64,000 bases of DNA from Raillietiella orientalis (lineage: Eukaryota). The stretch spans positions 2,480,001-2,544,000 of the forward strand of contig JAYWIR010000005.1 of assembly GCA_036172245.1 (NCBI GenBank), in the 5' to 3' direction. Numbering within the stretch: position 1 is the stretch's first letter; each line of letters starts with the position of its first letter. Below are positions 702-46,349 of this stretch, piece after piece. Position numbers and translations under genes: made by a program. Under the pieces are notes generated by a model. The model searched no databases. It saw only the letters and a program-made list of their open reading frames with translations, and had not been told where the DNA came from.

Positions 702-914
702 TTGAAACCCGGGTGTGCCGGGACGTTTATTCTCACGAAGAAACCTATACAATCTGTGACTGGACCAGTAGTCCAGCCACGCCCTGGAAAGATATAGCTT
801 GCCGGGCTACCGGTGCGCAGACCGGCGCGGTCGACCTCGGCAGCAGAGGGGAGGGGGAACGAAACAAAAAGAAAACAAAAAATAAACAAAAATCAGGGAG
901 GAAGCGGGAAGGGA

Positions 915-3900
915 TCACAGTCTGCTGGGAGGGTCCGTCATCCTCTGGAGGATGCCGGCAAGCTGTTTCTGCGTGTGTGGTTCCAGATGGGGCCATCGCG
1001 TCGCCATCCTGAGGAAACAGGCGGCATACACGTTGGCATCCCTGTCGCTGGATCCTCCCGTCGACTTGCTCCATGCCACGACGATCCCGCGTAGGCAGCA
1101 CAGGGCTGCAAGCGAGGCCGCTGGAGGCAGGGCGTCACGGACGAAGAGGGGGCGCAAAGCGTCTCTGGGGTTGCCTCCGGGGATCCCCAGGGCTGCGGCA
1201 AAGCGTTCCCACAAGGGACGGAGGGCAACACAATCCACTAACAGGTGGGGGAGGTATTCCCTCTCCCCGCACCTGACACAATTAGGGTTGACACCCCCCC
1301 TCGTCCAGTGGTGTCGGCGGGCGTTGCAAGGAAGCCCCCAATGCAACACCAGCAGTGCCGACTGTTGCCACTTCATGGGGAGGGTGCGCGAGTCCATGAG
1401 CACCGGGGGCCACTCGAGATGTTCCTCAGGAACATCCAGTAGCTCTCCCCAGCGCAACAGTCCATTTGGGGTGGTCCTCGGAATCGCAGCGTTGGTGAGC
1501 TGACCCGTTCTCCAATCCCCGATCTTCTTTGCCCTGCTGGAGATCTTGACAGTAACCTCCCATTGTGCCGCGACGTCGCTGCCCAGATGTTCCCGTAGGG
1601 TAGGCAGTACCGCAGCAAGGAAGGTTCTTTGTTCCCACGCTCTCCTTCGGGGATTCTCGATGATTTCTCGGAGCGTGCGGCGGGCATGCGGCCCGAACAG
1701 AGCTATTCGCTCGTGTTGCGGGCTCTGCTCCTGAATCATCGCCCACGTGCGGACGGTTTCCTGCAACCAGGCAGGACCGTTCGCGGGGCGTACGAGGTTC
1801 CGCGCCGAGTTGTTCTTCACGAGCTTGACCGCCCTCCGAAGTTGAAGTCCGCAGTGGCAGATGGGGCTTCGGAGTGCAAAGTAGGACGAGAGTCCTGCAT
1901 TGCCGGTGGCCCGCTCGAGGAGGAGACGTGCAGGGAGGCACCAAGGGGTGCACCAATTTTCTGCCATAAAGGCAACAACTCGGAACTGGAGCTGAAGCTC
2001 CAGCCGCTCCATCGTCAGGAGGCCCAGACCACCATCCCGACGAGGAGCGCACAAGTCCGAAAGACGGACTCGGGGCCTCCCTCTGCCCCAAAGGGCGATC
2101 CTCAGGAGGTCCTTCGTCCTCTTCTTTGACTCCGCTGAGGGGGGGCAAACAAAAAGCAAGGGGCGAAGGAGGGGGGCCGCAAACGCGTTCCACGCCGCGG
2201 CCCGTTCCTGCAGGTAGAACCTGCCGTCCTGGAACGGGCCGATCGCCGCCTGAGCCTTCTGAAGGCAGCCAGACCACGCTTCCCCAGTGGAGTAGTCCCC
2301 CAACGGCACACCAAGGTACTTGAAGTACCTCACCGTGGGGATCCCCAAACGGACCCAGTCCTGCTGCCCTGCCCACGCCGCTCCGATTGGCATTACGGAC
2401 GACTTCGCCCTGTTCACCGTCAGTCCTGTTCCCCGACTCAGTAGGTCGAAGAACTCCTCGACCGCCGCAGCCGGGGTGGACATAGGCAGCAGCAGCAGAA
2501 GGTCGTCCGCGTACGCCGAAACCGCTGGCGTACCGGGACAATCGCACGGCAGGTGCGCCAGAGTCTCCCTGTACGCTCTCAGCACCAATTCGAAATAGGC
2601 GCTGGAGAGCAAGGGGCTGAGGCTGTCTCCCTGCCGTATGCCGCGTCGCACCGGTACGCCGTACACGGTGGATCCACTAAAAAAAGCATTAATAAGCGCT
2701 TCGCGCCAGAAGGAGCGCAGGTAGGCCAGCAAAGAGGCCGGGAAGCCCAAGCGTTCCAGAAGCTCCAAAAGGAGATTCGGGTCGACGCAATCGAATGCTT
2801 TATGCAAATCGACTGCGACCGCGAGGGCTCCTGTCCCCTCCCGACCATTTCGTCCCCCACCGACGGACGCACCTGAATTCCGGTTGCTTATTATGCTCCT
2901 TCCTTGTTGGAGCTCTAACCATGTGGAAGCGTGGAACAGGTTCGCCTCCATACTTCGCCCGGGAACAGCATATGTCTGTTCCGAGCTGATGAAGATGTTG
3001 GCGACCCGTCCCAGGCGCTCTGCCCACAGCTTGGCTAGCAACTTGGCGTCCGCATTCACTATTGTGATGGGACGCCAGTTGTTCATGCTCCTAAGGTCTC
3101 CTCCCTTAGGAAGGAGCCGCACCTTTGCTGAACGAAACGAGGTGGGAACGTCACCTGTTTTGCGGATCAGCAAGGTGAGTTGCTGTACCAGGGGGGTAAG
3201 CTCAGCCGCGAAAGTTTGGTAAAACTCCGCGGGCAGGCCGTCCACCCCTGGAGCCTTCCGCCTCTTGAGCTTTCCGATGGCCGAGAGGATCTCGTCCATC
3301 GTGAAAGGCTCGTCGAGACTTCTTTTCTCCTCCTCTCCGATCGCTGGTGCACCTTCCAGAAGCAGAAGTCGTGAGACGTCTCGTTCCGGACGCGCCCTGG
3401 CGTACAGGGAGGAGTAAAATTTCCTCACTATCCCGCGTTTCTGAGCGGGAACCGAGTGCTCCCGGCCCTGGTCGTCCAGCAAGCTGGCCGACCCGGATTG
3501 CCAGGCTTGCCTCTCGGCTCCCGCTCGATACTCTGCTAACCTGCGCATGTCGGAGGTTCTCGCGTAACGTCGGGTCTCAAGATAGCACCTTTCGTTACGC
3601 GGCCCCTCTTCAAATCCCGCAGGTAGGCGATGCAGGGGGAACTGGTCGCAGAACTCCTGGACCGACCGCTTGAAGCGGTCCCAGTCCTGAAGTGTCTGCA
3701 TCCTGAAGCTCCAAATAAACGCGCGGAGGTGCTCCGCCGCGTCGGAAAACTTCAGCCAGTGTCCTGGCAGACGCCACGCTGACGAGGGGGGGCCCTTGTC
3801 GCACGGACGCACTTCGAACATGATCCGACCATGGTCCGACAGCTCGGATGGTACCTTGCCGCGCCTGCCCACCCGAGAGCATAGGTGCTGATCAAGGTAC

Positions 3901-4496
3901 ACGTGATCGATGCTGCTTTCCATGGCCGTGTCCCCGGCCAACAAGTTGCGCGTGTTCATTTCTGCGCACAACTCGTTGACGCGGTCGTTCAGTGTATCCT
4001 GCGCACCTGAAAGCAGGCGCAGGTTGAAATCACCTGCGATCAGGTGCGCTTTGCGAACTCCTGCATCAGTCAGCCAATCGCGTCTTAGGGCAAGGTAGAA
4101 TTCTTTTCTTGCCTTCGCCCTCAACGCGTTGTTTCCGCTAGGAGCGTATAGGTTGGTGACGACCAGGTCGAAAGAGTCGGACCAGAAGAGAGTCAGCTGA
4201 CCGACGCGACCTGCGTCATCGAACCGAACGTCCTTTATTGCGGTATCGATGTCTGGCCGAAGCAGGAAGGCGACACCGCTTGATTTCGCGGTGCCGCAAC
4301 ACCACAACAGCCGCCCACCCGAGATCCGTTCCATCTCCCGGGCTTGATGTGCGGAGATCACGTGGATCTACTGCAGCAGCTCCAGGTCGAAGGATGACAG
4401 GGTGGCGGCCACGTCACGCCTCTTGCCGTCGTCGCTTAGCAGGTTCACGTTCCAACAGGCGATCAGAAGACGACGGCGAGAGGCGACTTCCGGCAT
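915..4496 (-). pseudogene. E1 ORF2: APE endonuclease, reverse transcriptase, C-terminal CCHC Zn finger; one nonsense codon
   Basis: ATG at 4496. Motifs CWNVN, LQ*IH (TAG at 4368-4370 replaces the catalytic Glu), NLYAP, GDFN, IDH, SDH, APGVDG, WRPIT, DLHKAFD, RQGDSLSP, YADD, KYLG, CVRC...H...C. Otherwise open for 1148 codons. Confidence 0.95.
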
Positions 4497-6152
4497 TATG
4501 GCTGGGAAAGTGGCGTCGCGGCACCTGCCGCGGGGCAGGTGTAGGAAAGGTCCATCGGTACGAGGACCATCGGAACGAGGACGGAGGCCTCTTCAGGCGC
4601 CTGGGGTACCTGTTCGGCCTCCATCCTAACCATCCCCTCCGTGTCCAAGCGTGGAATTCTCTCGGGCGACGGGTCCCGGGAGTTTCCCACGCTCATGGCA
4701 CCCTCGCTACCGGAAGCCATCTCTTCCCCTTCGTCGGGGGAGACGATCTTCCGGGGCATTGTGGACTTTCGTCCTGCCTTTTTGCGGGGTGCCGCGGAGA
4801 TGGATGCTGTGTTTCCGGCCTTCACCTCGGGGTCGGAAGTGGCCGACTCCTAAGGGGAAGCCGGACGCCTGACGGCCTTCTTGCCAGCCTTGGGGGCAAC
4901 CGGCTGCAACGAGGCAGCCAGCTCCTCCGCGGCGCACTCGAAGGCGACGTCATCGAGCGTGGGCTCGATGACGGACGCCGCCGCCTCGCTCCCCTCCTTG
5001 TTGACTTTGTCAACGGAGGGTTGAGCAGGGGCAGCAGCGAGTTCTTTAGCGCCGCATTCGTCGATGGCGGGAATCCGCTCTACAACGACGCAGCAGCTTT
5101 TAATTTTTTCGCGGCGCAGAGCGGTTTCGCTCCGTTTCGCCACGTTCTTTCCCTTCTTATGGGAGTTTTTCTTGGGATGGACCTTCTGCCACCCTGGCTC
5201 TTGACCTTCGCCCTCGACCTTTTTGGCGTTTTTCGCCGGGGTCTCGGGGCTGGCCTTCGCCTTGGTGGCGGAAGTGACCTCCTTATCAGCAGCACGAGCT
5301 GCCAGCTTTTTCCTCTTTTTAGCCACGCGCTTTCTCGCGCTTTTCGCGGACACGACGCGGACTGTGTTTTGGGGGCACACCAGACGGGTGTGCCCCGCTT
5401 GTTTGCATTGCTGGCACTGCACGCTCAGACACATCATTTTAAGGTGACCAAAGCTGCTGCAGCAGCCGCAAAACTTGGGTTTCCCCACGTACCACACGTC
5501 AACGGATTCACCGTTGACGGTGAGTTTGTGGGGAACCTCACATCCCTCGCGAACCGTCACTCGCGCTGCATCCAGGCCGCCAAGCACCCCGTCGTAATCG
5601 ACAAAAGAAGTAGGCTTTCCCCACAGCGCGTGGACAGTTGCGAATTTTTCCAATTCGTTCCGGACGGTCTCCTTTGTCATCCGGAACGTGATACTGGTCA
5701 GGTGAATGATCACCGACCGGTCTTCAGTAATTGGGAGAAGCCTCCGGCTGCCCATAATTACGGGGGTTCGCAGAAGTCTCTGCGCAAGAGTTGCCTCCCT
5801 GCAGATAACTTCCACAAATTGACCCCCGCTTTTGACGGACATAGCCAGAAGCTCCTCTTTCTGTACGCCGAGAACGCGCATCGCCTGTGAGAAGGCGCGC
5901 GCGCTCTCGGGAGAATATAGAACGCCTAAATTATATAGAAGGGGTGGGTTATACCCCTCCTCCAGGTAAGCGCGCATTTCCGCCATAGCCGCTGGCGTAG
6001 GTGCCGCAGCTACGGCGTTCCAAGCCCTGGGTAGGGCCGGGGGCGCATCCGTGCTGGCGGGAGCCTCCACTGATGCGGGAGCCCCACCTCCATCTGCTCC
6101 GGGGGCAATGAGGTCATCGCCCCGGATCCTCACCGGTGGTGGTATCAGGCAT
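4496..6152 (-). pseudogene. E1 ORF1: gag-like protein with two CX2CX4HX4C knuckles
   Basis: CGCCSSFGHLKMMC and CQQCKQAGHTRLVC. ATG at 6152 is homologous to the F ORF1 start (MPD.TT). N-terminal frameshifts and an in-frame TAG at 4850; the frame continues to TAA at 4496. Confidence 0.9.
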
Positions 6153-6234
6153 TGCTGCCTAATCCTCCACCCACACCACGCACAAGCACGAACGGAAATG
6201 GAACTCGGGAGCAACGAAAGGACACGTCCGCTCG

Positions 6235-6251
6235 ACGCTCCGGAATCTCCA
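6235..6251 (+). repeat. Right TSD of E1
   Basis: Identical to 685-701. Confidence 0.95.
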
Positions 6252-8049
6252 GGACTGGGACCTTTTTAAGGAATCGGTCCGCGAGTTCTGTGAGCAGTTC
6301 CCACTGGATCGCCTGCCCCCCGGATTCGGCGGGCCTATTTACAGGCTCGTAGGTACGAGTGAACCCCTAATGTCCGTCGCCTGGCCGAGTACCGCGCCAG
6401 GGCCGAACGCCAAGCCTGGCAATCCGGGTCGGCCAGCTTGCTGGACGACCAGGGCCGGGAATGCTCGTCCCCGGCGTCGGTACGGCATCTCGTGCGGAGT
6501 TTTCATTCCTCACTTTACGCCAGGGAGCCCCCGGATCGAAACGCCTCTCGGCGCTTGCTTCCGGATGACGCCCCGGCAATAGGGGAGGAGGAGATGGAAA
6601 GCCTCGACGAGCCTTTTACCACCGGCGAAATTCTCGCCGGTATCAAAAGGCTCAAGAGGCGTTAAGCTCCAGGGGAAGACGGCTTGCCCGCGGAGTTCTT
6701 TCAAAGCTTCGCGAAAGAGCTGGCACCCCTGCTGCTTAAGTTGATCAGGCTGATCCGAGACGAAGGCGATGTTCCCGCCTCGTTTCGGTCAGCCAGAGTG
6801 AGGCTCCTTCCTAAAGGGGGAGACCTCAGGGATTTAAAGAACTGGCTTCCGATCACGATCGTGAATACGGACGTCAAGTTGATAGCAGGGCTATGGGCTT
6901 CGCGTCTGGGGAAGGTGGCAGAATCCGTAATTAGCCCGGAGCAGACTTATGCTGTTCCCGGGCGAAGTATGGATTCCAACCTCTTCTTCGCCAGCACATG
7001 GGTGCACCTGCAGAGAAGAGAGAAGAAAGGGATAGGGAAAGTCGGCAACCCCATATTGGGGCCGCCAGCCGGGCTGGGAAGGGACCCCCGGGCAGGGAAG
7101 GGGGCCCTAGCGCTCGCAGTCGATCTCCACAAGGCGTTCGACTGTGTAGACCAGGAACTCCTCTTGGAGCTCTTAGGTCATATGGGCTTCTCATCCTGCT
7201 TGATTTCCTACCTGCGCTCTTGCTGTCGGGACGCGATTATCTCAATCTGTTTTAGCAGTCAGAAGGTTTTTGGCATTCCGTTGCGGCAAGGCATAAGTCA
7301 GGGTGATAGTCTCAGTCCCCTGCTCTTTAGCAAATACTTTGTGTTGGTGCTGAGAGTATATAGGGTGACTTTGGCCCCCTTTCCGAGCTCGTGCCCCGGC
7401 ACGCCCGCCGCAGCAGCGTATGCCGACGGTCTTCTGCTTTTGTTGCCGATGTCCACTTTGGCAAAGTCGGTCGGGGATTTCTCCGATCTGCTTAGCCGCG
7501 GGACCGGACTACAGGTCAACAGGGCGAAATCGTCGGTGGTGCCAATAGGTGCGGCGTTGGCAAAGCAGCAGGACTGGGTCCGTTTGGGGATCACCACGGC
7601 CAGGTGCTTGAAGTACCTTGATGTGCCGTTGGGGGATTATTCCCCTTCGGATGCGTGGTCCATCTGCCTCCGTGAAGTCGAAACGGCGATCGGCCCGTTC
7701 CTGGAAGGCAAGTTTGACTTGCCCGAACGGGCCGGTGCTTGGAACGCTTTCGCGGCCCCCATCCTCCGCCCCTTGCTTTTTTTTGCATCGTCTTCTTTGA
7801 ATGAAAGAAGCGAACGAAGGAACTCGTCCGCATAGCCCTTTAAGGCAAGAGAGGCCCGAGCCCCTTTGAAGGATTTGTGCTTCCCGCGTCGGGACGGCGG
7901 TCTCAGCCTCCTGACGCTGGAGCGCGTGGAGAAACAGATGCGATGGCGCACCCTTGCCATTGCAGCGAAGCTATGGAGCACCCCTTGGTGCATTCCGGCC
8001 CGCCTTCTCGACAGCCGTGTGTCCCAGTGCGAGAGACTCGCGTCCCTTG

Positions 8050-10665: not shown

Positions 10666-11264
10666 CTGGAAGGACGCGGGGAAGTGTAAGGCCTGAGTGT
10701 GCGAGTTGTGGGGAGCGGGAATCGCTCCCCCACCTACTTCTTGACCCTATGGGAACGGTTCGGGACGACCCTCGGGCTTTCGGTGGGCATCCAACCCAGA
10801 GACGTTTTCCGTCATCTCTTCGTGCGTGAGGTCCTGCAGTCAGCCGCAGCCGTGGCAGCACTCTGCTACATCCGAGGCATCGTGGCGGCCTGAAGCGATG
10901 CACGCGACGGAGGATTGGACGCTATCGAGAGGGATGTCTTCCCGTATGCGGTCTGCTTCATGCGGAGATCTACAGGATGGCCCCAGCTGGGTTCAATGCT
11001 GATGGACCTCGAGGAAATCTGCGAAGGTTGGACCCTCCTCTTAGTGGAATGTGATCCCTTCCCCTTCCTCCAAACTCTTTTTGTTTTTTCTTTGTTTTTA
11101 TTTTATTTTTTGTTTTCTCCCACATTTCCCTCCACTGCCGAGGAGAGTCATGGCGGGCTGCGTATCAGCAGGTCCGATGTTGTTAGGCCGTTAGTGAGGC
11201 CTCGTACCACGTCTTGTAGAGTTTTATTTTTTCAATAAACGCCTTGGTCATACCCGGGTGGAAA

Positions 11265-12770
11265 CCCCAAATCCCGCAGCTAAGCGGTGCAGAGGGAACT
11301 GGTCGCAGAACTCCGGGACCGACCGTTTGAAGCGGTCCCAATCCTGGAGTGTCCGCAGCCTGAAGCTTCGTATGAACGTGCGGAGATGTTCCGCTGCGTC
11401 CGGGAGTTTCAGCCAGTCCCCTGGCAAACGTCACGCTGACGATGGGGGGCTCCTGTCTCGCGAAAGAATCTGGAGCACAATTGGGCGATGGTCGGAAAAC
11501 TCGGACGGTAATTTGCCGCGCATGCCCACAAGAGTGCACAGGTGCTCGTCAAGGAACACGTGATCGATGTTGTCCTCCATCCTTGGATACGCGCTCGATT
11601 TTAACGCGGCATTCCTTCGTAGCATAGCACGGAGATTTCACCTTCGGTTTCGCAACTGTCTGCGAAATTTTCGCGTTTTCCATTGTTTTATTTTTGAGGG
11701 ATTTGATTTTGTTTGGCACCAGCTTTCAGCCATCCTCGTCGATTCCCTGTTCAGGAGTCGCTTCTTGCGATTACGTGCTAGGATGTACGACTGCCTTGTT
11801 AGCTGGTAGCTAATCCTCTGCTTGTTTAGTTCTATTGTTTTCTTCAGCCTTCTCCCCCTTTTTATTTTCCAGGTTTTCTGGCTGTGTAGCGACGTTCTTA
11901 GGGCACACAACGTTAGTGTGGTCCTTTTCGCCGCATGTTCGGCACGTTGCATCCGGACATCTCTTCCGTAGATGCCCGAAAGTCATGCATTTCCCGCAAT
12001 ATTTTTGCTTCTTAACGAACCAGATATCAACGAGCTCATCGTTGACTTCCAGTTTGTGGGGAAGATAGATGTTATCGCGGAGAGTTACTCGCGTGGCCAT
12101 GCGCCCACTAAATGTGCCTCTGAAACTGAAGGCGTTGGGCTTACGTCACATCGCGTAAATCTCCGCGTATTTGTTCAGTTCTGTGAAGATAAATTCTTCG
12201 TCCATCCGCACGGTTGTACCAGTTAGGTGGATCACTATTGAGTGATCCACCGTGTGTGGTAGGAGATTACGTTTCTCGAAAGGCACGGGCGTGCAGAGCA
12301 GTTGATGCGTGAGCGCTGCATCTCTGCAGATGAGCTCCGCAAACTACCCCCCGCTACGCACCGAAAGCCACGTGATCTCCTCATCGGAAATGCCCATCCT
12401 ACGGATGGCATTTCCGAATTTGCAAGCTGTAATTGCAGAATACAAGTTGCCTACCTTATATAGAAGATGTGGATTGTAGCCCTCCTTGATGTAGGCTGAG
12501 AGTTCGGCGGCCACTTCGGGACACGCCGACGCAGCAAACTTGTTTCAAGCCCTCGCCGGAACGGCGGGGGCAGATTTGCTGATGGGGCATGCAGCCACAT
12601 CCACGGGATGGGGAGAAGTGGGTCTCACGTCTCCCGTCGCAGGTTTTGCGGCGTCTTCTGGCATTTCTGCCTTCCAACGGCCGCCTTCCAACACACACTA
12701 ACTACTACTTGGCTTCGGTTTCAGGAGCTCGCCAAAAACGCGTGCGACCACCAGTCCGCTTTAATGCAGT
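11265..12770 (-). mobile_element. Degenerate Tx1/L1-like element E3 (5' end, ORF1, late APE); internal deletion at ~11590
   Basis: Knuckles CGKCMTFGHLRKRC and CRTCGEKDHTNVVC. IDHVFLD...SDH follows directly after the ORF1 tail. Confidence 0.85.
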
Positions 12771-15751
12771 GTCTTTTTTTTAATTAGTGATTAGTCTTCT
12801 GCACTTCTGTTTGCTTTCGAAGAATATCTGGCTTAATTTTTCGAGTTAAAGCAGCTGAAAAAAAAAAAAGTGAACAAAATTAATGAGGGTAGATTAATAA
12901 ATGGAACTATAGACAGGCATCTTTGATATCAACGTTAGATGAATTCATATTCTGGCAACGTCATTTTGCTGTGAAATTTTTTATTAGCGTTAACAATATT
13001 ACATTTATTTATTGAGCTTTCAATAGAATTACTGATTACATCTCTCGATCTAATTAGTTCACACATGGTCACTCAGATTGGCTACCTCGAAAATTTACAT
13101 ACTAAGTTTAGTAAGGAAGCTTTTCAAGGCTAAGGAAAGCTTTACTCAAACACTCACGCTGAAAACTCGAAATAAAATAAGGATTTTTTTTTATATAACA
13201 AGCTATTGAAAATCCTAATGGTTAACCATTAAAATTGTAGAATGCAACAAGAAGTAACTGTTTTGATAATAGAAATGATTTTCGCTAACAATTTTTACAT
13301 TAAAAGAACTCTTTGGTCTTTTTTTGAAATTATAGATATAGAGCTGGAAGACATTTTCATTGAAATAAATGCCAATAGTGTGATTTCTACTTACGTCCTC
13401 TTGAAAGAAGATACTTATCGGGTGTATTTGATTTAAATCGGGTGTCACTTTTGCGTTTCTTGAGTGTTCTTATGCATCAGAGCACAGAGAACACGAAAGC
13501 ATGTGGCATTCTGTTTTGTTCTCATTTCGTTCTAAAATGATTTTGCGTAACGATTACTGTATTTTCATTTTCTAAACCTTTTTCACCGATTTATAGAATC
13601 GATCAAAGTGCATTGGGGATAATAAAAGTTTATTCGTTTATCGGTTGTTTTCACCGCAAATGAAAATTTTTCTTTTAGCTAAACGATCAATTTTAATTCT
13701 AAAGTGCTTTACTTTGGAGTATCAGCTTAAAATGCCCAAATATTAAGCAAATGAAGCTCAGAGTGGAGTTCAATAGCTATTAGAAAAGGAAGTCAAAAGA
13801 TGGTTAAAAACTGATGTAGCATTCCAAAATGAAGAGAGAATAGATACCAAATTGATATGAACCTAGGAAACTAGAATCACTCTTTATGCAAAGAATTTGG
13901 CACCATGATACATACGACTAATTAGAAACAAGTTCAAGAAGTTAGCAAATTATAAAAAATTATGAGGAGGTGCTTTATGGTACAATTAGACTTAAGACCA
14001 ACTGATTTGATCCTGGAAACTAGACAGTAATCCACAAGCAACACTCTCTTTGTGTACATTTCACAATTTTGCTGTGTGTATTAAAATGATGTCTTTTAAA
14101 GATAGTTCTTCACATGGAGAAATTGGGTAATGCGTTCCATCGCTTTGACAGAACAGAAACTTGGTGGTTCTTGCAAAGAGGCCTCAGAAGGAGTTTATTG
14201 GTTGAAAGCATAGGATAGAAAGAAACGGAAGATCAAAAGGGATTAAACCCACTGATGTTCTGTATTTGCATTCTATCTAGTGGTGAGTATTTATGCATTT
14301 CCTCTGTAATTTTTGCTACGTACAGGTAGCAAACAGAAAACTTTACTGTCAAGAAATTCAGTAATTTCCAAGAAGTTCGATTCAATAGTTCCACCTATGC
14401 TTGAAATGCAACAGTTCTCCTCGAATATCTTCAGAGCAATAAAAATAGTCGAATGCTCTTTTTATTGTCCTGAGCATACTCGGAGCTGTCTACATGGTCT
14501 GTTTTAGAGCTTTCCAAAATATTGAATCTCTCAGGATAAGCCTCACTTTTCAGTTGGCTGAAATAAAAATATCGAAATCAAATGTGCAATGAGGTCTAAT
14601 CGAATGAATCATTTCTTCTATTGATCAACAAACACTTTTCAGTACAATGAATAAATGTGTTTAGAAGTTTTCGGTTCTTCAGAAGAGACAGCATTAAGTT
14701 TATTTACAATAACAAGCATGTTTCCTTATGTAAGCCTTGATAAGTAGGGGTTTCCAATGCTTAGCTACTAGAAACCAAGCCTGTGGGATCTGTTTTTTTT
14801 TTTTTATTTTTACGGAAACTTATTTACTTTCAAGAAATAACTAGAGTTTTACGGCTATTTTGATAACTGCCTTGATAACTCAAATAACAGACTCAGTACA
14901 CTAAAGCCTGTAGAAATCTTAAATATGATGTGACTGCAAGTGTTTGTGTGGACGTACTAGGTAGCACCTAATGCATCTGAATAAGGTAGAAAACGAGCTC
15001 GTCTTTCAAGTTAAAAAGCATTCAGGATTCAGGTTAGATAATGCTGTTTTTTGTAGCAAATATAGCATTCTAAATCTAATTTCCTTGTCTACATGTGTGG
15101 GTGTTTAGGATTTATGACAAAAACTTTTACAGCTGTTGTGTATGTTGAACATCATTATTTTGCTTGAATATTTTCTCCTGATGTTCATGTAGGCAGTTAA
15201 TTCGGCGTGCATCTTCATAGACACGTTCTCTTCTCGCGAATAAGTTCTGAGTGGCTGTTCTTCGAGTAGTTTCCACTATATATGCTGTTTCTTTGTCTGT
15301 ACAAATTGCTGAGTCAGTTTACACCATGTCCTATCACATGAGCTTTTAGTAAAGCCAAACCACATTATTTATGCATAAATTAAGAAATCTTGTGATTTCG
15401 TGATATACGAAATGAATACAAAGGAGCTGATTTGAAGTATTATATTCAAGGATTTTCAACGACAGTAGGTGCTAGAAATCGGTCGCATTCAGGAAAAGCT
15501 GATTGCTTTCATAATATGAGTACATAAAGCTTTTGGCAGCATACGCATTTTTGATTTGCATAAACGCATCAATGCAAATCAGAATTTCTTGCAAGCATTT
15601 TGTGTTTCCATCGCTCCAGAGAAGTGGGAAATCTCATAGTGGAAGAAACCTTGAGGGTTCCTTTACATCTTCCCTTACATTCATTATCCTTTTTCATTCG
15701 TTTCATATCTTGCAAAAAATATTGTTAATACAATTTCTCTAGCATGGCATT

Positions 15752-16831
15752 CTAAAAGTCGTCGTCTTTTTTCTTTGGAGAGCAAATGGATTCCATGTTG
15801 TTAGAGAATTTGGATTTTCTGCAATCACCGATGTCCAGTTCGTCAGAAAACTTCTTAGCCATGCTGCTGTTACATTGCGTGGAAAAGTGGCATTGGGAAT
15901 CCAAGTGAGCACGTGTACATGACGTGTTTGCACAAGAGAAGGTGAGCGGTTCTTGCAGGCATCTTTGAATTTCCTTAAGGCGTTCCGAAAGTGCTAATTT
16001 CGTTTCTGAATCACTAGAACATGCACTTTTCTTGCATAAATGTATTAGGAATTTGCTTTCTTCTTGGAGGCAACAGAGGATTTGTTCGATTCTTCTATCC
16101 TTTTTGCAGCGTTCTTCATTGAAAGCTTTAAAGCAGTGTTCATTCTTCTCCCTTTCTTCGCACAAAGTGTTGTTCAGGCGTTTAATCATCTGCTCAGCGC
16201 TGCATAAAGTTCCCCGGCACTCTTCCAAAGATCTGATTGCATTGGATTTTTCTAGCTCCAGCTTTTCCGTTAGGTGCTTATGTTTGTTGGCATCCAATTC
16301 TATTTCCTGGCATTTTTTCTGGATGCCTTCGTTGTACTCGACAGCAGCTTTAAGTTCGTTAATCATGTTTTCTTTCAGTTTGATCTGCTGATTAAGGCAC
16401 TCAAACCGTGACGTGATCTCCGAGCAGTCCTTCATGACCCTTAGATTTATGTTCCTCGACTGCTCCAGCTCGTTGAGAAGTTGACACACGACCTTTTCGG
16501 GTGTGACCTCTTTTTCTCCGTATTGGCTCACTATGTGTTGAGTCTGAGGCATTATCACGCTTTTTCTCATCTTTTCTAAATCTTCTTTTGCAAACTGCAA
16601 TTGCTGCTGCAGAGCTCCTTGGGAGCACTCCTCGTGTTTCTGTCCTCCTGGAGTATCTTTCGACTTCAGGGCTTTGATTTGATTCGCGATCTTTGTGAGT
16701 TCACCGTCCAAACCTTCCGTGATGCTGCTTATAATGGAGTCGTATCGTTTGTCGGAACTCTGCTGGGAAAACTGGAACTCCCTTTTGGTTCTGTCATACT
16801 CATCAAGCATTTGATTCAGTCTCTCTTCCTT
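15752..16831 (-). CDS. Host gene terminal exon, uncharacterised Cys-containing coiled-coil protein
   Basis: 360 uninterrupted codons with E/K/Q/L heptad-like composition in AT-rich DNA. Upstream 3' splice site: branch GCTAAC (16851-16856), pyrimidine tract, AG at 16832-16833, in frame with the ORF. Confidence 0.75.
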   Translation of the reverse strand, partial: KEERLNQMLDEYDRTKREFQFSQQSSDKRYDSIISSITEGLDGELTKIANQIKALKSKDTPGGQKHEECSQGALQQQLQFAKEDLEKMRKSVIMPQTQHIVSQYGEKEVTPEKVVCQLLNELEQSRNINLRVMKDCSEITSRFECLNQQIKLKENMINELKAAVEYNEGIQKKCQEIELDANKHKHLTEKLELEKSNAIRSLEECRGTLCSAEQMIKRLNNTLCEEREKNEHCFKAFNEERCKKDRRIEQILCCLQEESKFLIHLCKKSACSSDSETKLALSERLKEIQRCLQEPLTFSCANTSCTRAHLDSQCHFSTQCNSSMAKKFSDELDIGDCRKSKFSNNMESICSPKKKDDDF

Positions 16832-19800
16832 CTACGAAATGAACGAAAAAGTTAGCAAGAACTGTAATGATACTGAACGTTGGAGTTGAATCATAATAAA
16901 ATTGATTTCATCTTGCTGGAGACGGAAACAAGGAACCATACAAGTTTTCATGAGCTGAACTCGCACGTGCATTCGCGCCATTCAGCTGCACTATTCAGAT
17001 TACTTACTCAACCCATTTACCCAGTGAAAACGCCAGATACCTACTGACTATCCAATGCTGTGGAAAGTTTTCCTTGAAAAATGTGCCCCTCCACTGTGAT
17101 TTCACATTCTGCATTATGGTTTCTAGTCAAGTAACTTACCTTTACTGTGAGGTAATGAGGCAAATGAGGCAAATGTCATCGCGTGTCATTTGAACTGTAG
17201 GCACCGAATTCAAAATTAATTAATCGATTGCTTATTTGCATTTGTCTACGTTTATGAGTTGACGAACAGGGTTACGAATACTTCGCATGAAAGCTGTATA
17301 TCATTTATTAGCAACATCATTTTCACAGTTCTTCCATTATAATTGCCATTAGTGTTGGCTTTCTGCTATCATTTCTTTGGCATAGTACCTCAAAGAAACT
17401 GCTGAATATTTTCAGTAATAACGAGCATTTGTTCTCACATATCAATACCAATGATAATTAGGAAAATTTGTCTGTAATTGTCATAAACTATGCACATTTT
17501 AAAAAATAATTGTTCATTATCTTCATATTTGTTCATTCGAGGATGTGGAGGTCTTTTCTGCCATAGTGTATCTGCCATAATGCAAATAGCAGAGAATTAT
17601 AATGTCTTATTGGTGGAAGTCCTTGAGTAGGAAATTCATAAGCAAATAGAGTATTCTACTTTTTAACTTATTTTTAATTAAATAACTGACTCACTAAGAA
17701 ATTACAAGGATTTGTATGATCATGCTGTTGTTGCCATTTGAAACATCGATTTATAGAATTGATCAAAGTGCATTATCGGTTATCGGTTGTTTTCATGTGC
17801 TAACATAGTGGAATAATTAGCACATTTAAAGAACATGATTCCTCTAATATGTTACCAGTTATACGGACTTTTGGCTTTTCACATGAATTTGGTTTTCTTA
17901 CTTGGTGAGCTAAAGAGTGACGGAAACGAAAGTAACACATTAATAAAACCTGTTGAATGACTGAGCCAAAAAAAATCAAAGCATTCTTTACATTAATTCT
18001 TAAGATTCTTCTGAATTAATTGGTTTGGGATCCAGGACTCTGATACAGAATCACCAGCAATTACCATGTCCTAATAGAAAAGCATGTTGTCGTAAACAAG
18101 AGCTTAGTTTTACCGACATTTTTAAATGTGTTCTGTTTTTTAATAATGAATAAGAAACAGCTTACCATTCTCCTCTTGTATTTTTCTATGGAATGGTACC
18201 AGAGGAATAAAATAGTGAAGATAACTGCCGTGAAGCACAAAGTAGAGAAGCTGATTCCATTTCCGAAACTAAATGATGTTTCTTTATTTACTTTGGGCGC
18301 CATTACTTTTGGACGTTTTAATTTCTCTAAAGAATGTACAGAAGAAGAATTCAGAGAGGAACGTTTTCAAAAACAAAATATAGGAAGGGCTGAGAGGAGA
18401 AAAGAAAAAAAACAAATTTCAGACTTTAATAACTATAGTAACATGATTGTCAGTAAGAACTCCTACCACTGCCCATTCAGAACTTCAAAAGACAATCTGT
18501 CATCTCAATAACATACTGAAATCTTTTCTCAGTTATGTGCATCCAGACATGTAAATACATTTTTGAAAATACATGTTTGTGTGACATGAACAGCATTTTA
18601 ACATTTTCTCACTATTATTCCGAAATTTTTCGTATCAATTACAAACAGTTGTACTGATGATAAAGTCTCTTCTCTGAATCCGAATTTCCTATTTTTTGAT
18701 GGGAAGAGGCGCTGGAGCCGACCCATGGAATCCGCTGCATGTCCTGCTCAGCGAAGGCTCGAAAGCGCTCTTCTGGTCAGGTTTCCATAAACAAGGGATG
18801 TACTGTGGTCAAGAATGGCCAACGAACGCAAAATGTCGCGCGAAATCCAGAGGTTAGCAGCAGCTTCAGTTCTCCTCAACAGCCTAAAACAGAATGGCAT
18901 CGTGACGGGTGATGCTGGCATGCAGCGGAATGATTCGACATCTCCACTCATCCGACGAAGTTACATTTCTGAGAACGAACCCTGTGGATCTGGGGCCAGA
19001 GGATTACACAGTCAGGCAACAGACGCTACGTTTAATGGAGTGCTTGGAACATCCAGCATGCAAGAGACATAGACTGGCTACATCGGTTGGGCTAGCGGTA
19101 AGCAATCCCTGGAAGAGGAGAAGAGTAGGATGATTCTGAAATGGGGATTTCCCATCCTCATGGATTCCACCGTCCATTTAGTATTTCTTCTGACAGCTTA
19201 ATCGTGAATAAAATTGCTTATTCTTCTCATTGAGATCACCGTCCCAAGTCAAGAGGGTCTGTCCCTTTCTCTCGAAAGCCGTGGATTCGGATAACAACAG
19301 GCTGGAATGATCTCATAAGAGATGAAGGGCACATTCTTAGTGCGCGGTGCACTAAAATTAAGATAGTCCATTCTAGGTTGTTCTATTCAAGTGTCATTTA
19401 GGCTTCTTATGGAACAAAACACTTGTTCAGTGTCAGTGGCTTCAACCTTTTCCATCCTCCAGCTTTCCTTAGAAGCATTCTGAGCTCAGAAATGCTCGTT
19501 CCGTTCTCTTACTTCATCTCAACCATTTTACTTCTTTGCGGTCGTAACAAACAAAGACTTCCTTACTTGAGAGGGAATTATTTAGAACTACTGCAAGAAG
19601 CATCGCCTCTGAAAGAGTTTGAGATCTGTTTCGTAGAAGCAGTCGGTGGAATGAAGCTTACATCATTTAACACGAATCGTTGAATCTGTTCTGTGGATCC
19701 ATTCCTGCCACAAAGGTGTCTTCAAGGAATGGATTAGCGGCTAATTGCTCCGAACCACGTAACCTCGCTTCTAATTCTCCTGATTCTCATGAGTTTGTCT

Positions 19801-22469
19801 TCCGAGATCGCATCCCATTCTCTTTGCAATCTAGAGAGCGTACCACCAATTCTTGTTTCAGCCATGATCGATTGGGTGTCTTGGAAATCCGGTTCAACTG
19901 CTTTGAGATTACTTAGACTTCAGTCGTTTGCTAGTCACTGTCGAAGTCAGTCTTGGGTTGGTGGTTTCTCACGTGCGCTCGTCTGGAGCAATTTGCGTCA
20001 ACGCTATCTCATTTTCTTTAATTGCCGCGGCTGCTGTGAAGTCGTTAGAAACCACAGTCAGCTGTAGTTGCCTGCATCTGGCTGAGTTCATCTACGTCGA
20101 CTCCTACATGCTCTCTAAGATGGAAAAGTTTAGGATGTGCTTTCCATAGGCTACCTGAACCATCAAACGACGGAAATAACTACAGAAGAAGAACTATCTG
20201 GGGAGAGCTTTGATACTCCCCAAAGTGGCTTAGTTTCCGGTGCATCTTGCAGCAAAACTGAGAACAAGAAAACAGAAATCAGACCACGAGAACAGCAATA
20301 TTTTCGTTGGATATGTAAGCTAATGAAAGTATTGCTTAATCGGCGCGAACTATAACATACGTTTAAGAAGAGAACAAGCAAATATAGGAAGAGGGATTTT
20401 AGGATTTTCTCTGCCAATCTCTTTTTCTCTTCCCTCTCATTGTTCTTAAGAGGTTTGCACATTACCGGAGATACCCAGTGTGTGTTTCCTTAGAACACTG
20501 CACATCTGGGTGTGAATGCATTCCATCTGCCCATTGAAAATTACCGTTCCTCCCAGTATTTCATGATTGGCTAAGTTCCAGGATTACGGAGATCCTGCTG
20601 TTAATCCCCTTCCTGTGGCAGGCGCTCCTTTGGAAAAGCGAAGGGCCTATTCTAGATGTTTATTCTCCTTTCTACGTCTCGCCTCTTCCAGTGCTATTGA
20701 GAAGTACTCACATGAAGCAAGAGACATCCAAGAGTTTTCCTTCGTTCTGAGTGGGGTGCTGCAGAATGCAATACCCCATCTGGCCATAGCCTTGAATCAG
20801 TTTAAGCAATTTTCTGATTGGTGGTCACCAACTCCCACTGCTTCCATATGTGGTCCTTGATTTGGGTTACCAATTCTTTGGACCTTTATCAAGCAATAGT
20901 TGTTCCGTATATCCTTTCAGAAGGCCATCTAGCAGTGCTTGTGCTGCTTCTAGAAGCAAAGTTTTTGACTCCATATTCTCAGGATTGGGATGAGACTTGG
21001 AGCTCTTCATGTCACAGTGCATTTTTCCTGGTTTCTGCTTCACCATTTAAGTGTTACATATGTTGAATCTCTGTGTGGCCATAGAGACTAAGCGAATTGC
21101 CTCAATCTCTTCTAAGTTCACTATCCCTTGATACTGCTCCTCACGGTTGCCATCTGCTCCATGGACAGTATCTAGTACGGCATACAATGCTTTCCTTAAA
21201 GAAGGGCTCGATCCCCGATGTCGAGAACTGATGGAAATGAATGTCTCATTTTCCTGTATGTCGGTTTTCATCGTGCCTGAGTCCTTGCTCTCTATTTTGA
21301 TAACACTTGCATTGGGATTGCTTTCCGAGTTCATATCGACTGCGGCTAAGTATGCGCTTACTGATCGTTGTGGAATAGGAGAATCCTTTCCCTCTAGGAA
21401 TCCTGATTTTACCGTGTTTCCCCTGCGTCTGTGCCCCTTCACTTGCCAGTGCGTATGGTCCATCACCGTCTTTTAATCGACATATCACATTTTGCATTGA
21501 TATTCTAAAGTGGATTCCGACACCGGTAGGCGTCTGAACAACTCGAGTCACTCATATGATTAGCGCACGTCCTGTGTTGTGGAAATTTTGAAAATGAATT
21601 AAAATATTCTTTGCTGTTGAATTTTCTGGATACGGTAGTACGAGATCCATTGTAAAGGACGTTGCGAAAAGTGGTGAAAAAAATCGATCGCAAGCATCGG
21701 CATGTGATGGAGATTTGGAGGAATGCATGTCTAGAGAGCGCCATGCGAGGTAAACAGAATCATAGAAGGTATATTTCTTTGCACAGTGAGGAGATGAGAG
21801 TCCACAAAAATGGAATAAGAAAGACTTTTGTGAAAGAAATGTCCTAAACAACATGGGGCGACTTTACGATCCATACGCACACGAAGAAGAAAATCACTCG
21901 AGTCTGCAGACAGCTCAATGCAAAACACCTCTTTGCTGCAGAGCGCTCAGATCAAGGGAAGAACATGCCTTGTCTTAGACCAACATCAGTCATCCCAGTT
22001 ATCGTCTGTACAACGACAAACATCTGAGGTCCTCAGACTGCACATTTATCCATGAAGTGACTACTGTAGCTTCGGCAAATACGGATACCATGCACCAAGA
22101 ATGGAAGAGATTGTCCATGCGGAAGATGTAAGTGGTGGAAGCAATTCCTAAGACACATTCTCAACAGATGTATAATAACGGAAAGGCATGAAATATTCGT
22201 TACCGCAAATCAAAAAACACGTAATGAAATAGTGTCCATGCTGAAAAACTGTATAAAGTACCTATCGGTATTTTCAAAGGATTCTTAATGATCCTTCATA
22301 CAGTTTATTATTCTGCTCATTGAGATGTCTCATCAGAACTCAGATATCTGCATTTTATGGGATTTGCACTCCACTCACTGAGTCTCGGGCGCTGATGCTT
22401 TGCTGTGACCTCACTTTCTCTTTGCTCTGTGTTCCTGCACTGCCTTCCACATCTGCAGAATCAACAAAG

Positions 22470-27329: not shown

Positions 27330-29100
27330 TGTTGTCTCGCTGTCGCGTGCGCTTATTCCTAAACTATCTAGAAACAGAGTTCCCGGACAAAAGACACAGA
27401 AGAAACGAAGGGGGCGATCACCGACACGCAGGTCGGTAAACCAAAAGTCCGGAAGGGGAGGGAGGAGACCACAAATAAACACATAAAAAATAAAAATAAA
27501 CATATGGGAGGGCAAAGGACAGGGGTCTTTGGTTTATCCGTTCGTTTCCTTCAGAACCGGCTATGGATGCCGGTAATCTCGCTCCTAACGTCCTCTGGAA
27601 GAGGAGCCCACTCGGTAGCCGACGACATGCTATTCCGGTGGTGTGTGGACGAATCGCCAGCTTCTCTAGCTCTCAAAGGGCCTTGTCGATGGCGCATCAA
27701 GTCTCTTGAGGTGTCTCCCTGGTACAGGAGAGCTGAGCTGAGGCCAGTCCCCGCCACAGTCCTTGGAGGACACCGCAGTCCAAGAGCAGTTGCGGGAGCG
27801 TTTCCACGTCTCCGCACCGTTTACAGTTCGGGAAGGCAACTCTCACGGAAACACGGTTCGTCCGCTGGTTGGAGTGAAATCCCTAATACACCAGCATGAT
27901 GACGTCCTGTTTCCAGCTCAAAGGAAACACAGAAGTGTTCAAGCAGGAGGAAGGGACCACAAGTTCTTCGGGGGCACACTCAACAGTTCGCTTCACCGCT
28001 GGAGTCCCTTCGTAATGTTGCGAGGCATGGCGGCGTCTGCCAGCTCGAAAGTCCTCCTGCCGCCTATATGTCGGGTTGCCCCTGCGATGGTGAAGGCGAC
28101 CTCCCACATCGCCGATAGGTAGCTGTCATCACTTGCCCTGAAGGATGGCAGCTTGTCGGCGAGGGGAATGGCGGCCAGGCGAGTCCACTTCTGGCTATTC
28201 CAGACCTCATCCACCGTACTGCACGAGGAGAGGTTGGTGCAACGGAGTTCCAAGAGGGTAACATCCTGTTGCTTTGCCCAGTCATGCAACGATTCCTGCC
28301 TCCAGACGTCAAAGTTCGTTGGGCGGCAGGAGATCCATGAGTGCGCTACTAGGAGCCGGTGAAGCGGTTTCATCGGGAAACCGAAGCTTCTCGTGGCGTG
28401 CTCCGTATGCAGCTGAAGCGATTAAAGGCCATTGCTGTCGGTGCAGCTCCGGAGGAGCAGGCGCGCGGGATCACACTAAGGAGTACACCAAAGGTTGGCG
28501 TACAGGGCCAACATTCGAAGCTGCACCTGCAGCTCGATTCTCTCCAGAGTCAGGATGCCGCTTGGGCACCCGAACGCAGAGCCGCCAAGTCTTTAAGGCA
28601 GATCCTGGACCTCGCGGGTTCCCTCAGAGCGTTTCTCAACAGGCTTTGCGCCTTGGCCGAGTAGGAAGTCGGACAAACAAAAAGCAGGGGGCGTAAGTGG
28701 GGGGCTATGAAGGTGTTCGATACGGTGGCCTGGTTCGGCAGGAGGAACCCAGCTAGGTGGAACGGGATTGAAACACTCGTAGCTTTCCGAAGGTAGTCCG
28801 ACCACGCTTCCACTGGGCTGATGTTCCCAGCGGTACGCCCAAGTATCGCAAACACGTAGCGGTCGGTATCCCTAAGAGGATCCGGTCGGACTGCCCCTCT
28901 TACGCCGCACCAATAGAAATGACCACGCTCTTGCTCCGGTTTACGCTCATGTCCGCTACCCGGCGAATCAGTTCGAAGAAATCCTCGAAAGTGGACGCCG
29001 GGGTGGTCTTGGATAAAAGGAGAAGCAGGTCATTGACATAGGCCATCACGGATGGCGTACGTGGACAAGAGATCGGCAGGCTGGCCAGCGTCAGCCTGTT
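27330..29100 (-). mobile_element. 3' part of Tx1-like element D1 (late RT, Zn finger, 3'UTR)
   Basis: FIAPHLRPLLFVCP, CGDVETLPQLL-like finger, T-rich 3'UTR with CTGCG hairpin. Confidence 0.85.
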
Positions 29101-32290: not shown

Positions 32291-32364
32291 TCAGGAGATG
32301 GCGTTACTCGTTTGGCATTGAAGACTCGCATGCAGAGCGCGCGTCACCCACTGGATACGTGGGA

Positions 32365-35300
32365 GTTTCCACTGGTCATTCCGAAGCGTTTATTAAAAAA
32401 CTATCAAACCTCGTCGCCAACGGGGAGGAGATGGAGTGCCGTCGTTACTGCACCATTCCCGGCTACAGTTGTGGAGAAGACTGCCCACTGCGGCTGCAAA
32501 CTTCGCTGATCTATTAGGTAGGTAGTGTATTTGATGAAAAAATAGGTCAGCAAAGAGACCGGAAAGCCAAAGCGTTCCAGGAGCTCCAGCAGGAGCCTCT
32601 GGTCGACACTGTCTAATGCTTAATGCAAATCGAATGCGATCGCGAGGGCTCCCTTCCCTCCCAGCCATCCTGTTCCCCAACTGCGGATATTCCGGAATTC
32701 CGGTTGCCCATCCTGACCCTTTCCTGTTGGAGCGAGAACCAAGCGCTGGCAAGGAACAGGTTGGCATCCATGCTCCACCCGGGAACAGCATATGTCTGCT
32801 CCGGGCTGAATAAACTTTCCTCCAAGCGCCCCAGGCGTTCAGCCCACAACATCGCAAGCAGCTTGGCGTCCGCGTTTATCACGGTAATCGGGCGCCAGCT
32901 GCTTATCCTGCCTCTCAAGCCTTTCGATGGCCGAGATGAACTCGGCTATCGTGAAAGGCTCGTCGAAACTCCTTCTGTCCTCCTCCTCGATAGCCGGAGC
33001 GCCTTTCGGAAGCAGAAGTCGCAAGGCATTTTGTTCGCGCGTATAAGGAGGAGTAGAACATTCGCAAGATACCTTCCACCTGTGCGTAGGCCAAGTTCTC
33101 CGAGCCCTGGTGGTCCAACAAGCTGGCCGACCCGGATTGCCATGCTTGCCTCTCGGCTCCCGCACGGTATTCGGCTAGCCTGCGTACGTCAGGAGTTCGC
33201 GAGTAACGTAGAGATTGTAAATACCATCTCTCGTTACGCACGCTTTCACCAAACCCGGCTGGCAGGAGGTTCATAGAGAACTCGTCGCAAAAATCCCGGA
33301 CCGAGCGCTTGAAGCGGTCCCAGTCCTGAAGCGTCTGCAAGCTGAAACCTCGTATGAATCCGCAGAGATGCTCCACGGCTTCCGGAAGTTTCAGCCAGTC
33401 CCCTGGTAAGCGCCACGCAGATGACGGGGGACCTCTGTCGCGTGGGCGCACCTCGAGCACTAACCGGTCATGGTCCGACAGTTCCGACGGTAACTTGCCG
33501 CGCCTGCCCACGCGGAAACATAGATGCCGGTCAAGAAACACGTGATCGATGCTGTTGGCCATTTTTGGATCTTCTGTGAACAAGGTGCGCGTGTGCATCT
33601 CTGCGCACAGCTCGTTCACGCGGTCCCGAAGTGTGTCGGACGCACCTGACAGCAGGCGCAGGTTAAAGTCACCTGCGATTAGGTGCGCTTTGCGCACTCC
33701 CGCTTCGTCCAGATATTTGCTCCTCAGGGTAAGGAAGAAATCTCTCCTTGCCTTTGCCCTTAGCGCGTCGCTGCCGCTTGGGGAGTACACGTTGGTAATG
33801 ACCAGATCGATGGAGTCGGACCACCTGATGGTCATCCGGCCGACGCGACCGGCACTATCGAACCGTACGCCCTTTGTTGCGGCCTCGACAGCTGGACGAA
33901 GCAGGAACGCGACACCGCAAGATTTAACGGTGCCGCAATGCCAAGCAGCCGTCCACCGGAGATACGCTCGATGTCCGTTGCATCGTCTGCGGAGATGACG
34001 TGGATCTCCTGCAAAGCACCAGACCGAACGATGCCAGGGTGGCGGTTACGTCTCCACTCTTGCTGTCGTCGCTTAGCCCGTTGAATTTCTAACAGGCAAT
34101 TCGCAAACGGCGGCAAGAGGCGATTCCCGGCATTAAGGCTGGGAACATGGCGTTGTAGCACCTGTCAAGAGACATGTGGGAGGGATAAGCAAAGGGATCG
34201 CGGACATCGCAGGCATCTGAAGCACCTGGGGCACAGACTCCACCCTTCCCATCCCTCCGGGGTCGCAGCGTAAGGTTACCACTAGAGGCGAGTCCCTGGA
34301 GTTCCCCACGTTCTTCGCACTCTCGTTTCCCCCGATTATCTCTTCCTTTTGAATTGAAGAGATAATCCTGTGGGTCGCCTCCGTCATGAGACTAGGGTGC
34401 GTACGGGGAACAGCGATGCCGCAGCCTATGTTTTCCGCCTCCGCGATGCAGTCCGAATTCTGCGACTTTTTGGAGTTCGGACGCCTTAAGGCCTTTTTTG
34501 CGCCTTTAGGGGGACGAGGCAGGGCCGCTGCAGGGACGAAGCGAGCTCTTCTGCCGCTCACATAAAGGCGACGTCATCGAGCATGCGCTAGAAGACAGAC
34601 GCCACCACCGGGCCGATAGCCTCCGTGTTTACATTGACGAAGGGTTGAGAGTTGGCAGCGACGAGTTCGGTTTTGCCGACCACCATGTCTGTTCGACCAG
34701 AGGAATGTGCTCGATGACGATAGAGCACCGTTTGATTTTTTCGCGACGCGTCAAATTTTCGCTGCGCTTCGCGATGCTATTTGTTTTATTTTTTTCCTCG
34801 AGGTTTTTCTGCCTCTTGGACTGTACCACCTGCCATCCTGGTTCCTGGCCGTTCTGCTCAATCTTGTCCGCGTTTTCCGTCGGGCTCTCGTGGCTGACCT
34901 TCATCTGGGGCACGATAGCTTCTTCTTTAGCGGTGGCCAGCGCTCGCGCTGCTAAAATTCTTAGTTTTTTTGCCGTGCGCTTCTTCGCATTCCGTGCAGA
35001 CGCTACGCGGAATTGATTTTGCGGGCACACCGGACTTGTGTGCCCGGGTTGCTTGCATTGCTTGAACTGCAAGTAGGGGCACCTGTTTTACAGGTGACCT
35101 GAAGTGCTGCAATACCCGCAGAAATGCGGCATCCCAACATACCAAAGGTCAACGGGCTCGCTGTCGACCTCCAGCTTGTTGTGTAATGTATAGCCCCCGC
35201 GGACTGTTATCAGGGCGGCTGCCAGACTGCATGCGAACCGGCGGTAATCCGAAAACGAAGTCAGCCTCTTTCTCCATCATCATCTTCATTGCTTTTGGAC

Positions 35301-36484: not shown

Positions 36485-36720
36485 GTTTTTCACAAAGGTG
36501 AGCCGGAGCTTTTATTACTAAAATTTCTTACTAAGGAAAAAATTCTGTAATAAAGTCAATATTTTTTCAACAATGTTTCTCTTTTTGTCAGCACAGTAGG
36601 AAATTCTGTTTTGTGGCACTTGTCCTTACCAACCCGCAGGCCGAGAAGTTCCTACACACTGGCGCAGGGGCGGGAAAAATCAAAAAATAAGAAATAAAGC
36701 AAAAAAAAAAATAACACACA
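36485..36720 (-). repeat. E6: diverged tandem duplicate of the E7 3'UTR
   Basis: Aligns with 36730-36960 (ggcacttgtccttacc.acccgcaggccga, ttttattactaaaattt). Confidence 0.85.
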
Positions 36721-46167: not shown

Positions 46168-46349
46168 GTTTCCCCAAGTCCCACAAGGGGTGGGGTAAGT
46201 TTATTTTTCTATAAAAATACAATATTACATTCGCACTCTCATTCACTCAATACAAACATTTTGCACTTGGGGGTTCCTGGGTTGCACTAGAGTTCTGCTT
46301 CTCAGGGGGGAATAACAGCTGGATGGTCCCGGGCGTCGTCCTGGATCCT

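Follow-up and report, generated by a model that had tools for sequence, protein, structure and literature searches.

Structured 3' tails are already known in L2, R2 and monocot L1 elements. In the L2 clade, the stem-loop of eel UnaL2 adjoins the start site and its loop is required (PMC1636434), and in zebrafish L2 the tail is bound by the linker between endonuclease and reverse transcriptase (EN-RT linker), with the stem read generally and the loop specifically (PMC4176376). Within the L1 clade, the LINE1-1_ZM group of the monocot L1 lineage is described as having a covarying 3' hairpin with compensatory changes (PMC3472496), and L1-1_CR of Chlamydomonas provides a further structured tail for comparison (PMC3747384). 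A poly(A) end is found in the algal pair and in 224 of 233 flowering-plant L1 families (PMC3472496). Stem-loops have also been proposed for human L1 (PMC5135761), and the 3' UTR of A-clade R2 elements is reported as a pseudoknot-hinge-stem (PMC12180492). Among Tx1-clade elements, Tx1 in Tx1D and Tx1-Mar are cited as targeting other transposons (PMC4494074). A 3' hairpin by itself is an ordinary kind of signal; the tail described here is an unusual form of it in animal L1-like LINEs. We found no published description of this tail in a literature search of limited scope, with Repbase outside it.

Sampling and Sequence Analysis

The window analyzed here is a 64,000-nt stretch of a Raillietiella orientalis contig (JAYWIR010000005.1), and all coordinates refer to it. 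The actin of this genome has Drosophila Actin-5C and other cytoplasmic actins of animals as its best matches. Tails were collected from 864 kb of the 210-Mb genome, consisting of the window and 80 stretches beside it or near copies of the element E1. A first tail set of 119 matches was reduced to 111 by removing 4 matches without the terminal motif and 4 that were short or mis-anchored. A set of 156 tails, less one short sequence, gave 155 tails in 36 groups, of which 34 had ORF2 coverage and two did not. Removal of the 11 groups with fewer than three copies left 23 families, for which consensuses drawn from extra genomic copies replaced decayed single copies. Tail alignments were made from sequence alone. 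The covariance model for the hairpin P2 was built from 21 family representatives, and pairing was evaluated against a purpose-built, tree-based null in the style of R-scape.

Element E1 and the Surrounding LINE Nest

Except for one AT-rich stretch, the window is a nest of related LINEs (Table 1). The AT-rich island (about 12750-22450) is free of these LINEs and contains a 359-aa open frame at 15752-16831 (minus strand). A full-length U4 snRNA gene (Rfam RF00015, 92.6 bits) lies amid the nest at 51736-51874 (minus strand). Element E1 is inserted antisense in the ORF2 of another family, within the EN-RT linker. Its ORF1 carries two CX2CX4HX4C knuckles, identified by eye, and had no match in Pfam. 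In the ORF2 of E1 an in-frame stop lies immediately upstream of the open frame, within the endonuclease. Full-length copies of several families open with a shared 5' motif, approximately GAGYGGACGTGYTTT, seen at 6205-6234 (minus strand) and at tandem junctions, which is a candidate internal promoter or 5' signal.

Table 1. Positions of E1, its tail elements and the other tail copies in the window
Feature	Position	Strand
E1 target-site duplication, 3' copy, 17 bp	685-701	-
Element E1, full-length L1-like LINE, about 5.5 kb	702-6234	-
Terminal module of E1: AAUAAA, two bases able to pair with the loop, CCCGG/CCGGG hairpin, T + 5 nt, end, no poly(A)	702-731	-
P4, AU-rich hairpin with AAUAAA in its 3' arm, variable among families	725-745	-
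P3, second hairpin, 10 bp in E1	756-780	-
P1, outer stem (838-842 with 800-804), enclosing a 2-bp mini-stem and P2	800-842	-
P2 of E1, hexaloop CUGCGC at 815-820	809-826	-
U-rich tract after the stop codon (E1)	857-893	-
E1 ORF2 open frame: APE endonuclease, RT, weak zf-RVT	915-4367	-
E1 ORF1 reading frame, stop to stop, extending beyond the 5' end of the element	4850-6265	-
E1 target-site duplication, 5' copy, 17 bp	6235-6251	-
Additional copy, 3' UTR: P2 degenerate, terminal module 11234-11264	11127-11264	+
P2 of D1; terminal hairpin lost in this copy	27418-27439	-
E5: P2 with variant loop 35979-35996, terminal module 35870-35899	35870-35996	-
Additional copy: P2 36622-36647, terminal module 36487-36516	36487-36647	-
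E7: P2 36882-36907, terminal module 36731-36760	36731-36907	-
Additional copy: decayed P2 42330-42349, terminal module 42239-42268	42239-42349	-
G: register-shifted P2 56215-56229, terminal module 56320-56349	56215-56349	+
F: decayed P2 63824-63841, terminal module 63924-63954	63824-63954	+

A Pfam search of ORF2 placed Exo_endo_phos and RVT_1 above the cut-off and zf-RVT below it (E 0.0065), so that ORF2 has the APE endonuclease, RT and C-terminal CCHC expected of the L1 clade. Compared with solved structures, E1 ORF2 was closest to human L1 ORF2p (E 1e-42), with R2 at E 7e-13; the nearest database relatives of the window elements share only some 30% identity with them. A quick RT tree, with SH-aLRT support only, placed the window elements in a lineage of their own (SH-aLRT 99), which split into the hairpin-bearing families (SH-aLRT 100) and a sister lineage, K. 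By sequence the elements are L1-like, as judged against a reference set without labelled Tx1 sequences. Lineage K ends in its own AAUAAA and conserved hairpin module, without poly(A), and the covariance model gave no match to P2 in this lineage. The K copy in the window (46170-46205, minus strand) has a near-invariant AAUAAA-plus-hairpin module with a few As; seven copies of this module were present in the 864 kb, 72-100% identical to the window copy.

Architecture of the 3' Tail

P2 was found to be one of four to five helices (P1/P2, P3, P4 and the terminal module) in a tail of about 150 nt. The last 150 nt of the 23 family consensuses had a median folding z-score of -2.3, while single window copies folded weakly (z -2.9 to +0.5 in eight copies), and the consensuses regained P2 pairing that decayed single copies had lost. 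With the sequence-only alignment of the 21 representatives, RNAalifold returned two helices only, P2 and the terminal hairpin. P1 is limited to one clade. P3 is widespread, confirming the earlier observation that a second hairpin often follows the first, and it is retained in form with sequences that are unrelated between families. In one clade, a pseudoknot-like unit stands in place of P3; its second stem changes between U-A (22 copies) and C-G (17 copies) and is paired in 39 of 42 copies, and its first stem showed no covariation. This clade-specific candidate for an H-type pseudoknot is seen at 11185-11215 (plus strand) and in relatives of that copy. In several families the AAUAAA can be paired into P4. 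The U-rich tract of E1 is conserved; we speculate that it could pair with any poly(A) tail carried by the RNA and so exclude poly(A) from the copy.

The terminal module has a 30-nt consensus, AAUAAA-N-G-Y-CCCGG-loop-CCGGG-T-N5, and is better conserved than P2. It lies at the end itself, and P2 lies about 105 nt upstream of it. The base after AAUAAA and the second base of the terminal loop are Watson-Crick partners in 22 of 23 families (C-G 17, U-A 3, A-U 2, mismatch 1), and an adjoining G-C is likewise held in 22 of 23. This suggests from sequence comparison that the terminal hairpin may be closed by a 2-bp pseudoknot, noticed post hoc at rank 4 of 18,145 (E 1.9) with about two events in one clade. 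A degenerate terminal-like module without recognizable P2-P4 upstream is present at 32360-32394 (minus strand).

We also searched for a match between the tail and described RNAs. Rfam covariance models gave no match at E ≤ 1 on the window tails and, on 10 tail loci, only matches far below the gathering score. Neither a known ribozyme nor a known Rfam family was found in the tail by these searches.

Copies of P2 in the Window

The sequence-only reading of the window had quoted six hairpins with a conserved (C)UGCG loop. All six are present in element sense at the positions it gave, although only E1, D1 and E7 are clean. The ATTGGT arm of F proved to be decay after insertion, the family of F having ACCGGT, and the loop of E5 is a variant and not UGCG. 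The family G hairpin does pair, but in a shifted register (GGCAC/GTGCC) in which the last bases of the loop are paired, as seen in the consensus of 11 copies. The covariance model detected nine copies in the window at E<0.01, the next match having E 0.59; since its training set contains copy G and relatives of the other copies, this search is not an independent test. Three of the nine matches had been missed before, at 11127-11183 (plus strand), 36614-36670 (minus strand) and 42316-42373 (minus strand).

Covariation of P2

The 34 groups are 24-87% identical in the C-terminal part of ORF2, with a median of 39%. For a 19-pair structure, none of 500 column shuffles matched the observed pairing or covariation score. 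This control is blind to relatedness, and therefore P2 was ranked against all possible 6-bp helices of the same alignment. It ranked first of 17,766 helices for the 34 groups and first of 16,290 for the 23 family consensuses, where it was 88% paired with two-sided changes at all six pairs. The loop-closing pair is C-G in nine families, U-A in seven, G-C in three and unpaired in four. Under the tree-based null this pair had P of about 3.5e-5 and E 0.64 across all 18,145 column pairs; it is thus significant for a proposed structure of 6-19 pairs but above the threshold over all column pairs, and as the best of the P2 pairs it leaves none that passes the all-pairs correction individually. The remaining four gap-free pairs had P values of 0.016-0.42. 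When the scores of the five gap-free pairs were summed and compared with 6-pair null helices, P was 1.7e-4.

With decayed single copies included, the E-value of the closing pair was 28.6, and its single-branch paired changes were no more frequent than chance (2.0 observed, 1.9 expected). This branch-by-branch co-change test was above chance for one of the six pairs only. Departures from Watson-Crick pairing were equally divided between G-U and A-C (four each), so that the strand was not distinguished, and the arms of P2 are often self-palindromic. The covariation predicted for the hairpin is therefore good for the whole helix and thin for single pairs, none of which is significant after all-pairs correction. 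At the helix level, P2 is a conserved 3' UTR stem-loop with compensatory changes, as expected of a stringent tail.

The P2 Loop

Sixteen of the 23 families carry a CUGCGN loop, and the other seven have CUAUGC, CUAGAA, ACUCAA, CUCAGA, AUGGA, CUGUGC and AUACGA, the last derived from three mixed copies. By position, C1 is conserved in 30, U2 in 32 and G5 in 31 of the 34 groups. Two of these seven, the CUAUGC and the CUAGAA family, are young as well as abundant (40 scored matches for each, at 96-100% and 88-100% identity, respectively), which indicates that the loop can change with the stem retained. The earlier proposal that stems change while pairing and loop are kept thus holds for the stem, whose letters change under preserved pairing, but not for the loop, which is not invariant.

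A cross-loop pair between C1 and G5 would make a pseudo-triloop of the IRE/TAR type. These positions are C-G in 19 of 23 families, with no covariation (P 0.35). A kissing interaction between the P2 loop and the terminal loop was also considered and rejected, as its four pairs showed no covariation in the 23 families (P 0.10-0.69). Single copies had given it a compensatory look, which was decay in one case; one family fits the kissing pairing perfectly and at least six break it.

3' Ends, Insertion Sites and Search for a Partner SINE

The 30 E1-family loci all share one terminal base and have no A tail; across 155 ends, the 14 nt following the terminal hairpin contain at most 6 consecutive As. 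The 3' poly(A) that marks insertions of relaxed, mammalian-type L1 is thus absent. Of the 32 ends where a target duplication could be detected, 22 have it starting exactly 5 nt downstream of CCGGGT; hence the last bases of the element do not match the target. As is usual in the L1 clade, target-site duplications are present. They measure 12-17 bp in 20 of the 32 ends; the remaining 12 are longer, and tandem junctions or nested repeats account for at least 10 of these. In E1-family copies L004, L006, L010, L011 and L029, the 3' target duplication differs from copy to copy in its opening bases, with a frequent shift to A that may be the trace of a few A residues on the RNA end.

Insertion is target-specific, as in Tx1-type elements: 23 of the 30 E1-family loci, some of which may be duplications of one insertion, are at one site in another family's ORF2, with five in tandem, one elsewhere and one at a contig end. 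Each of many families has its own codon-exact site in sister elements, the RT 'KAFD' codons being one example; in several older families the insertions have no target in common. The codon-exact targets in sister ORF2 and ORF1 are mostly entered antisense, even where host sequences differ (window and L031-L110). In E1 numbering, the sites are at approximately residues 52, 112, 228, 255, 311, 404, 446, 527 and 1007 of ORF2 and 396 of ORF1.

The sequence-only reading had also suggested that a covariance model might reveal partner SINEs. ORF2 lies upstream of 148 of the 155 tails, and the other seven come from separate groups whose upstream sequences are unrelated to one another; of 132 strict terminal motifs, 131 fall in these tails. 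No partner SINE sharing the tail was detected in 864 kb of the 210 Mb, in stretches chosen near E1 copies. Both the missing poly(A) and the constant 3' end fit recognition of the stringent type. The L2-type arrangement of a stem-loop directly before a terminal short repeat was not found, P2 being some 105 nt upstream of a fixed end that has no repeat.

Discussion

A helix is kept across families, the end is fixed and tail-less, and insertion is site-specific. Our preferred reading, to which we give a probability of about 0.5, is that ORF2p binds a folded 3' tail of the stringent type, some 150 nt long, in which P2 is one helix and acts as an upstream grip. Recognition by ORF2p is what we infer: the protein would bind its own RNA through the folded tail; P2 would be an internal grip with a stem read generally and a loop co-evolving with the protein, as in zebrafish L2; the near-invariant terminal module would bring the final base into the RT site where the target is nicked in a sequence-specific manner; and copying would begin without pairing between poly(A) and a T-tract. 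Retention of the stem with a changed loop in young families fits such a stem-general, loop-specific model (PMC4176376). P2 is distant from the start site, unlike the UnaL2 stem-loop, which makes the terminal module the likelier start-site signal. Several further points count against a grip by ORF2p: the CUGCGN loop is common to 16 families and cannot separate them; lineage K, which gave no match to P2, also ends without poly(A); none of the pairs passes the all-pairs correction, and single-branch changes of the closing pair are at chance once decayed copies are included; the strand is not distinguished; a partner SINE was not found in 864 kb; and single window copies fold weakly. The original proposal of a structured RT-recognition element in an L1/Tx1-like family is thus upheld as regards an RNA structure under selection in the 3' UTRs of L1-like elements with APE endonuclease and RT, whose ends fit the stringent type. 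To choose P2 over the terminal module as the RT-bound part goes beyond the evidence, given the better conservation of the terminal module, the absence of a P2 match in K and the other loops of young, abundant families.

It is possible, if somewhat unlikely, that P2 binds a host factor of 3'-end processing, export, translation or localization, and that the RT uses the terminal module only. P2 has the U-rich tract on one side and, on the other, an AAUAAA placed 30 nt from the end, which is the layout of a polyadenylation signal; a single loop is shared by families with ORF2 C-termini only about 39% identical, and lineage K has a conserved terminal module but lacks P2. However, a host protein with a fixed loop preference would disfavor the recently amplified families with other loops, and the AAUAAA can be paired into P4 in several families. 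We consider it improbable that P2 is a scaffold with an unread loop, in a compact fold that protects the tail-less RNA from 3' decay or presents its end. The persistence of several helices in form but not in sequence (P3), and the replacement of P3 by a covarying pseudoknot-like unit in one clade, would be expected of a scaffold, but C1, U2 and G5 are conserved beyond what it needs, and the loop-loop contact with the terminal hairpin was rejected when tested.

Still less credible, in our estimate, is that P2 lacks an RNA function and was simply inherited as a CCGG-rich palindrome, or is a dyad site of the DNA. The palindromic arms, the single individually strong pair and the lack of strand asymmetry are compatible with this explanation. 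Against it stand the three kinds of Watson-Crick pair found at the loop-closing position, the two-sided changes seen in all six pairs, the restored pairing of family consensuses and the top rank of P2 among helices of the same alignment, with relatedness retained. A more far-reaching and rather doubtful extension of recognition by ORF2p is R2-like priming, in which a portable P2 and a pseudoknot-closed terminal module would set the first copied base without poly(A) or target pairing. Because the module is common to most families and each endonuclease cuts a different codon of the sister elements, families could cross-mobilize RNA into each other's sites; if so, one RNA handle would serve many interchangeable site-specific nickases.

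Whether the L1 clade was once stringent, and how an L1-type RT chooses RNA without poly(A), are open questions in the cited literature (PMC3472496, PMC4176376, PMC5135761). With over 20 naturally occurring RT/tail pairs, in which loops are mostly shared and sometimes swapped, ends are fixed and targets differ, the lineage described here makes the question directly testable. Builders of gene-insertion tools might also take an interest in a short, defined 3' module carried by site-specific APE elements.

As far as the cited descriptions go, the tail shares with the L2 stem-loops (UnaL2, ZfL2-1 and ZfL2-2) a short 3' UTR hairpin with a conserved loop, a swap-tolerant stem and no need for poly(A) (PMC1636434, PMC4176376). 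It differs in belonging to another clade, in the location of P2 far from the end as one of several helices, and in having no terminal simple repeat, a loop common to many families and no partner SINE found in 864 kb. With the stringent L1-clade elements LINE1-1_ZM and L1-1_CR it shares an L1-clade ORF2 and a conserved 3' hairpin with compensatory changes and conserved loop bases, but here the host is an animal, poly(A) is lacking, the end is fixed, the tail has multiple helices and insertion is site-specific. A-clade R2 is a comparable site-specific element whose protein positions the template via a folded 3' module that includes a pseudoknot; R2, however, has a restriction-like endonuclease and one ORF, in contrast to the APE endonuclease and the inferred cross-pair of only 2 bp in our elements. 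Tx1 elements (Tx1 in Tx1D, Tx1-Mar) are also APE and RT elements with family-specific targets inside other mobile elements, whereas the targets here are codon-exact sites in sister LINEs. On our preferred reading the tail works like a stringent tail; it is neither of the L2 type, from which it differs in position and end, nor that of a relaxed L1.
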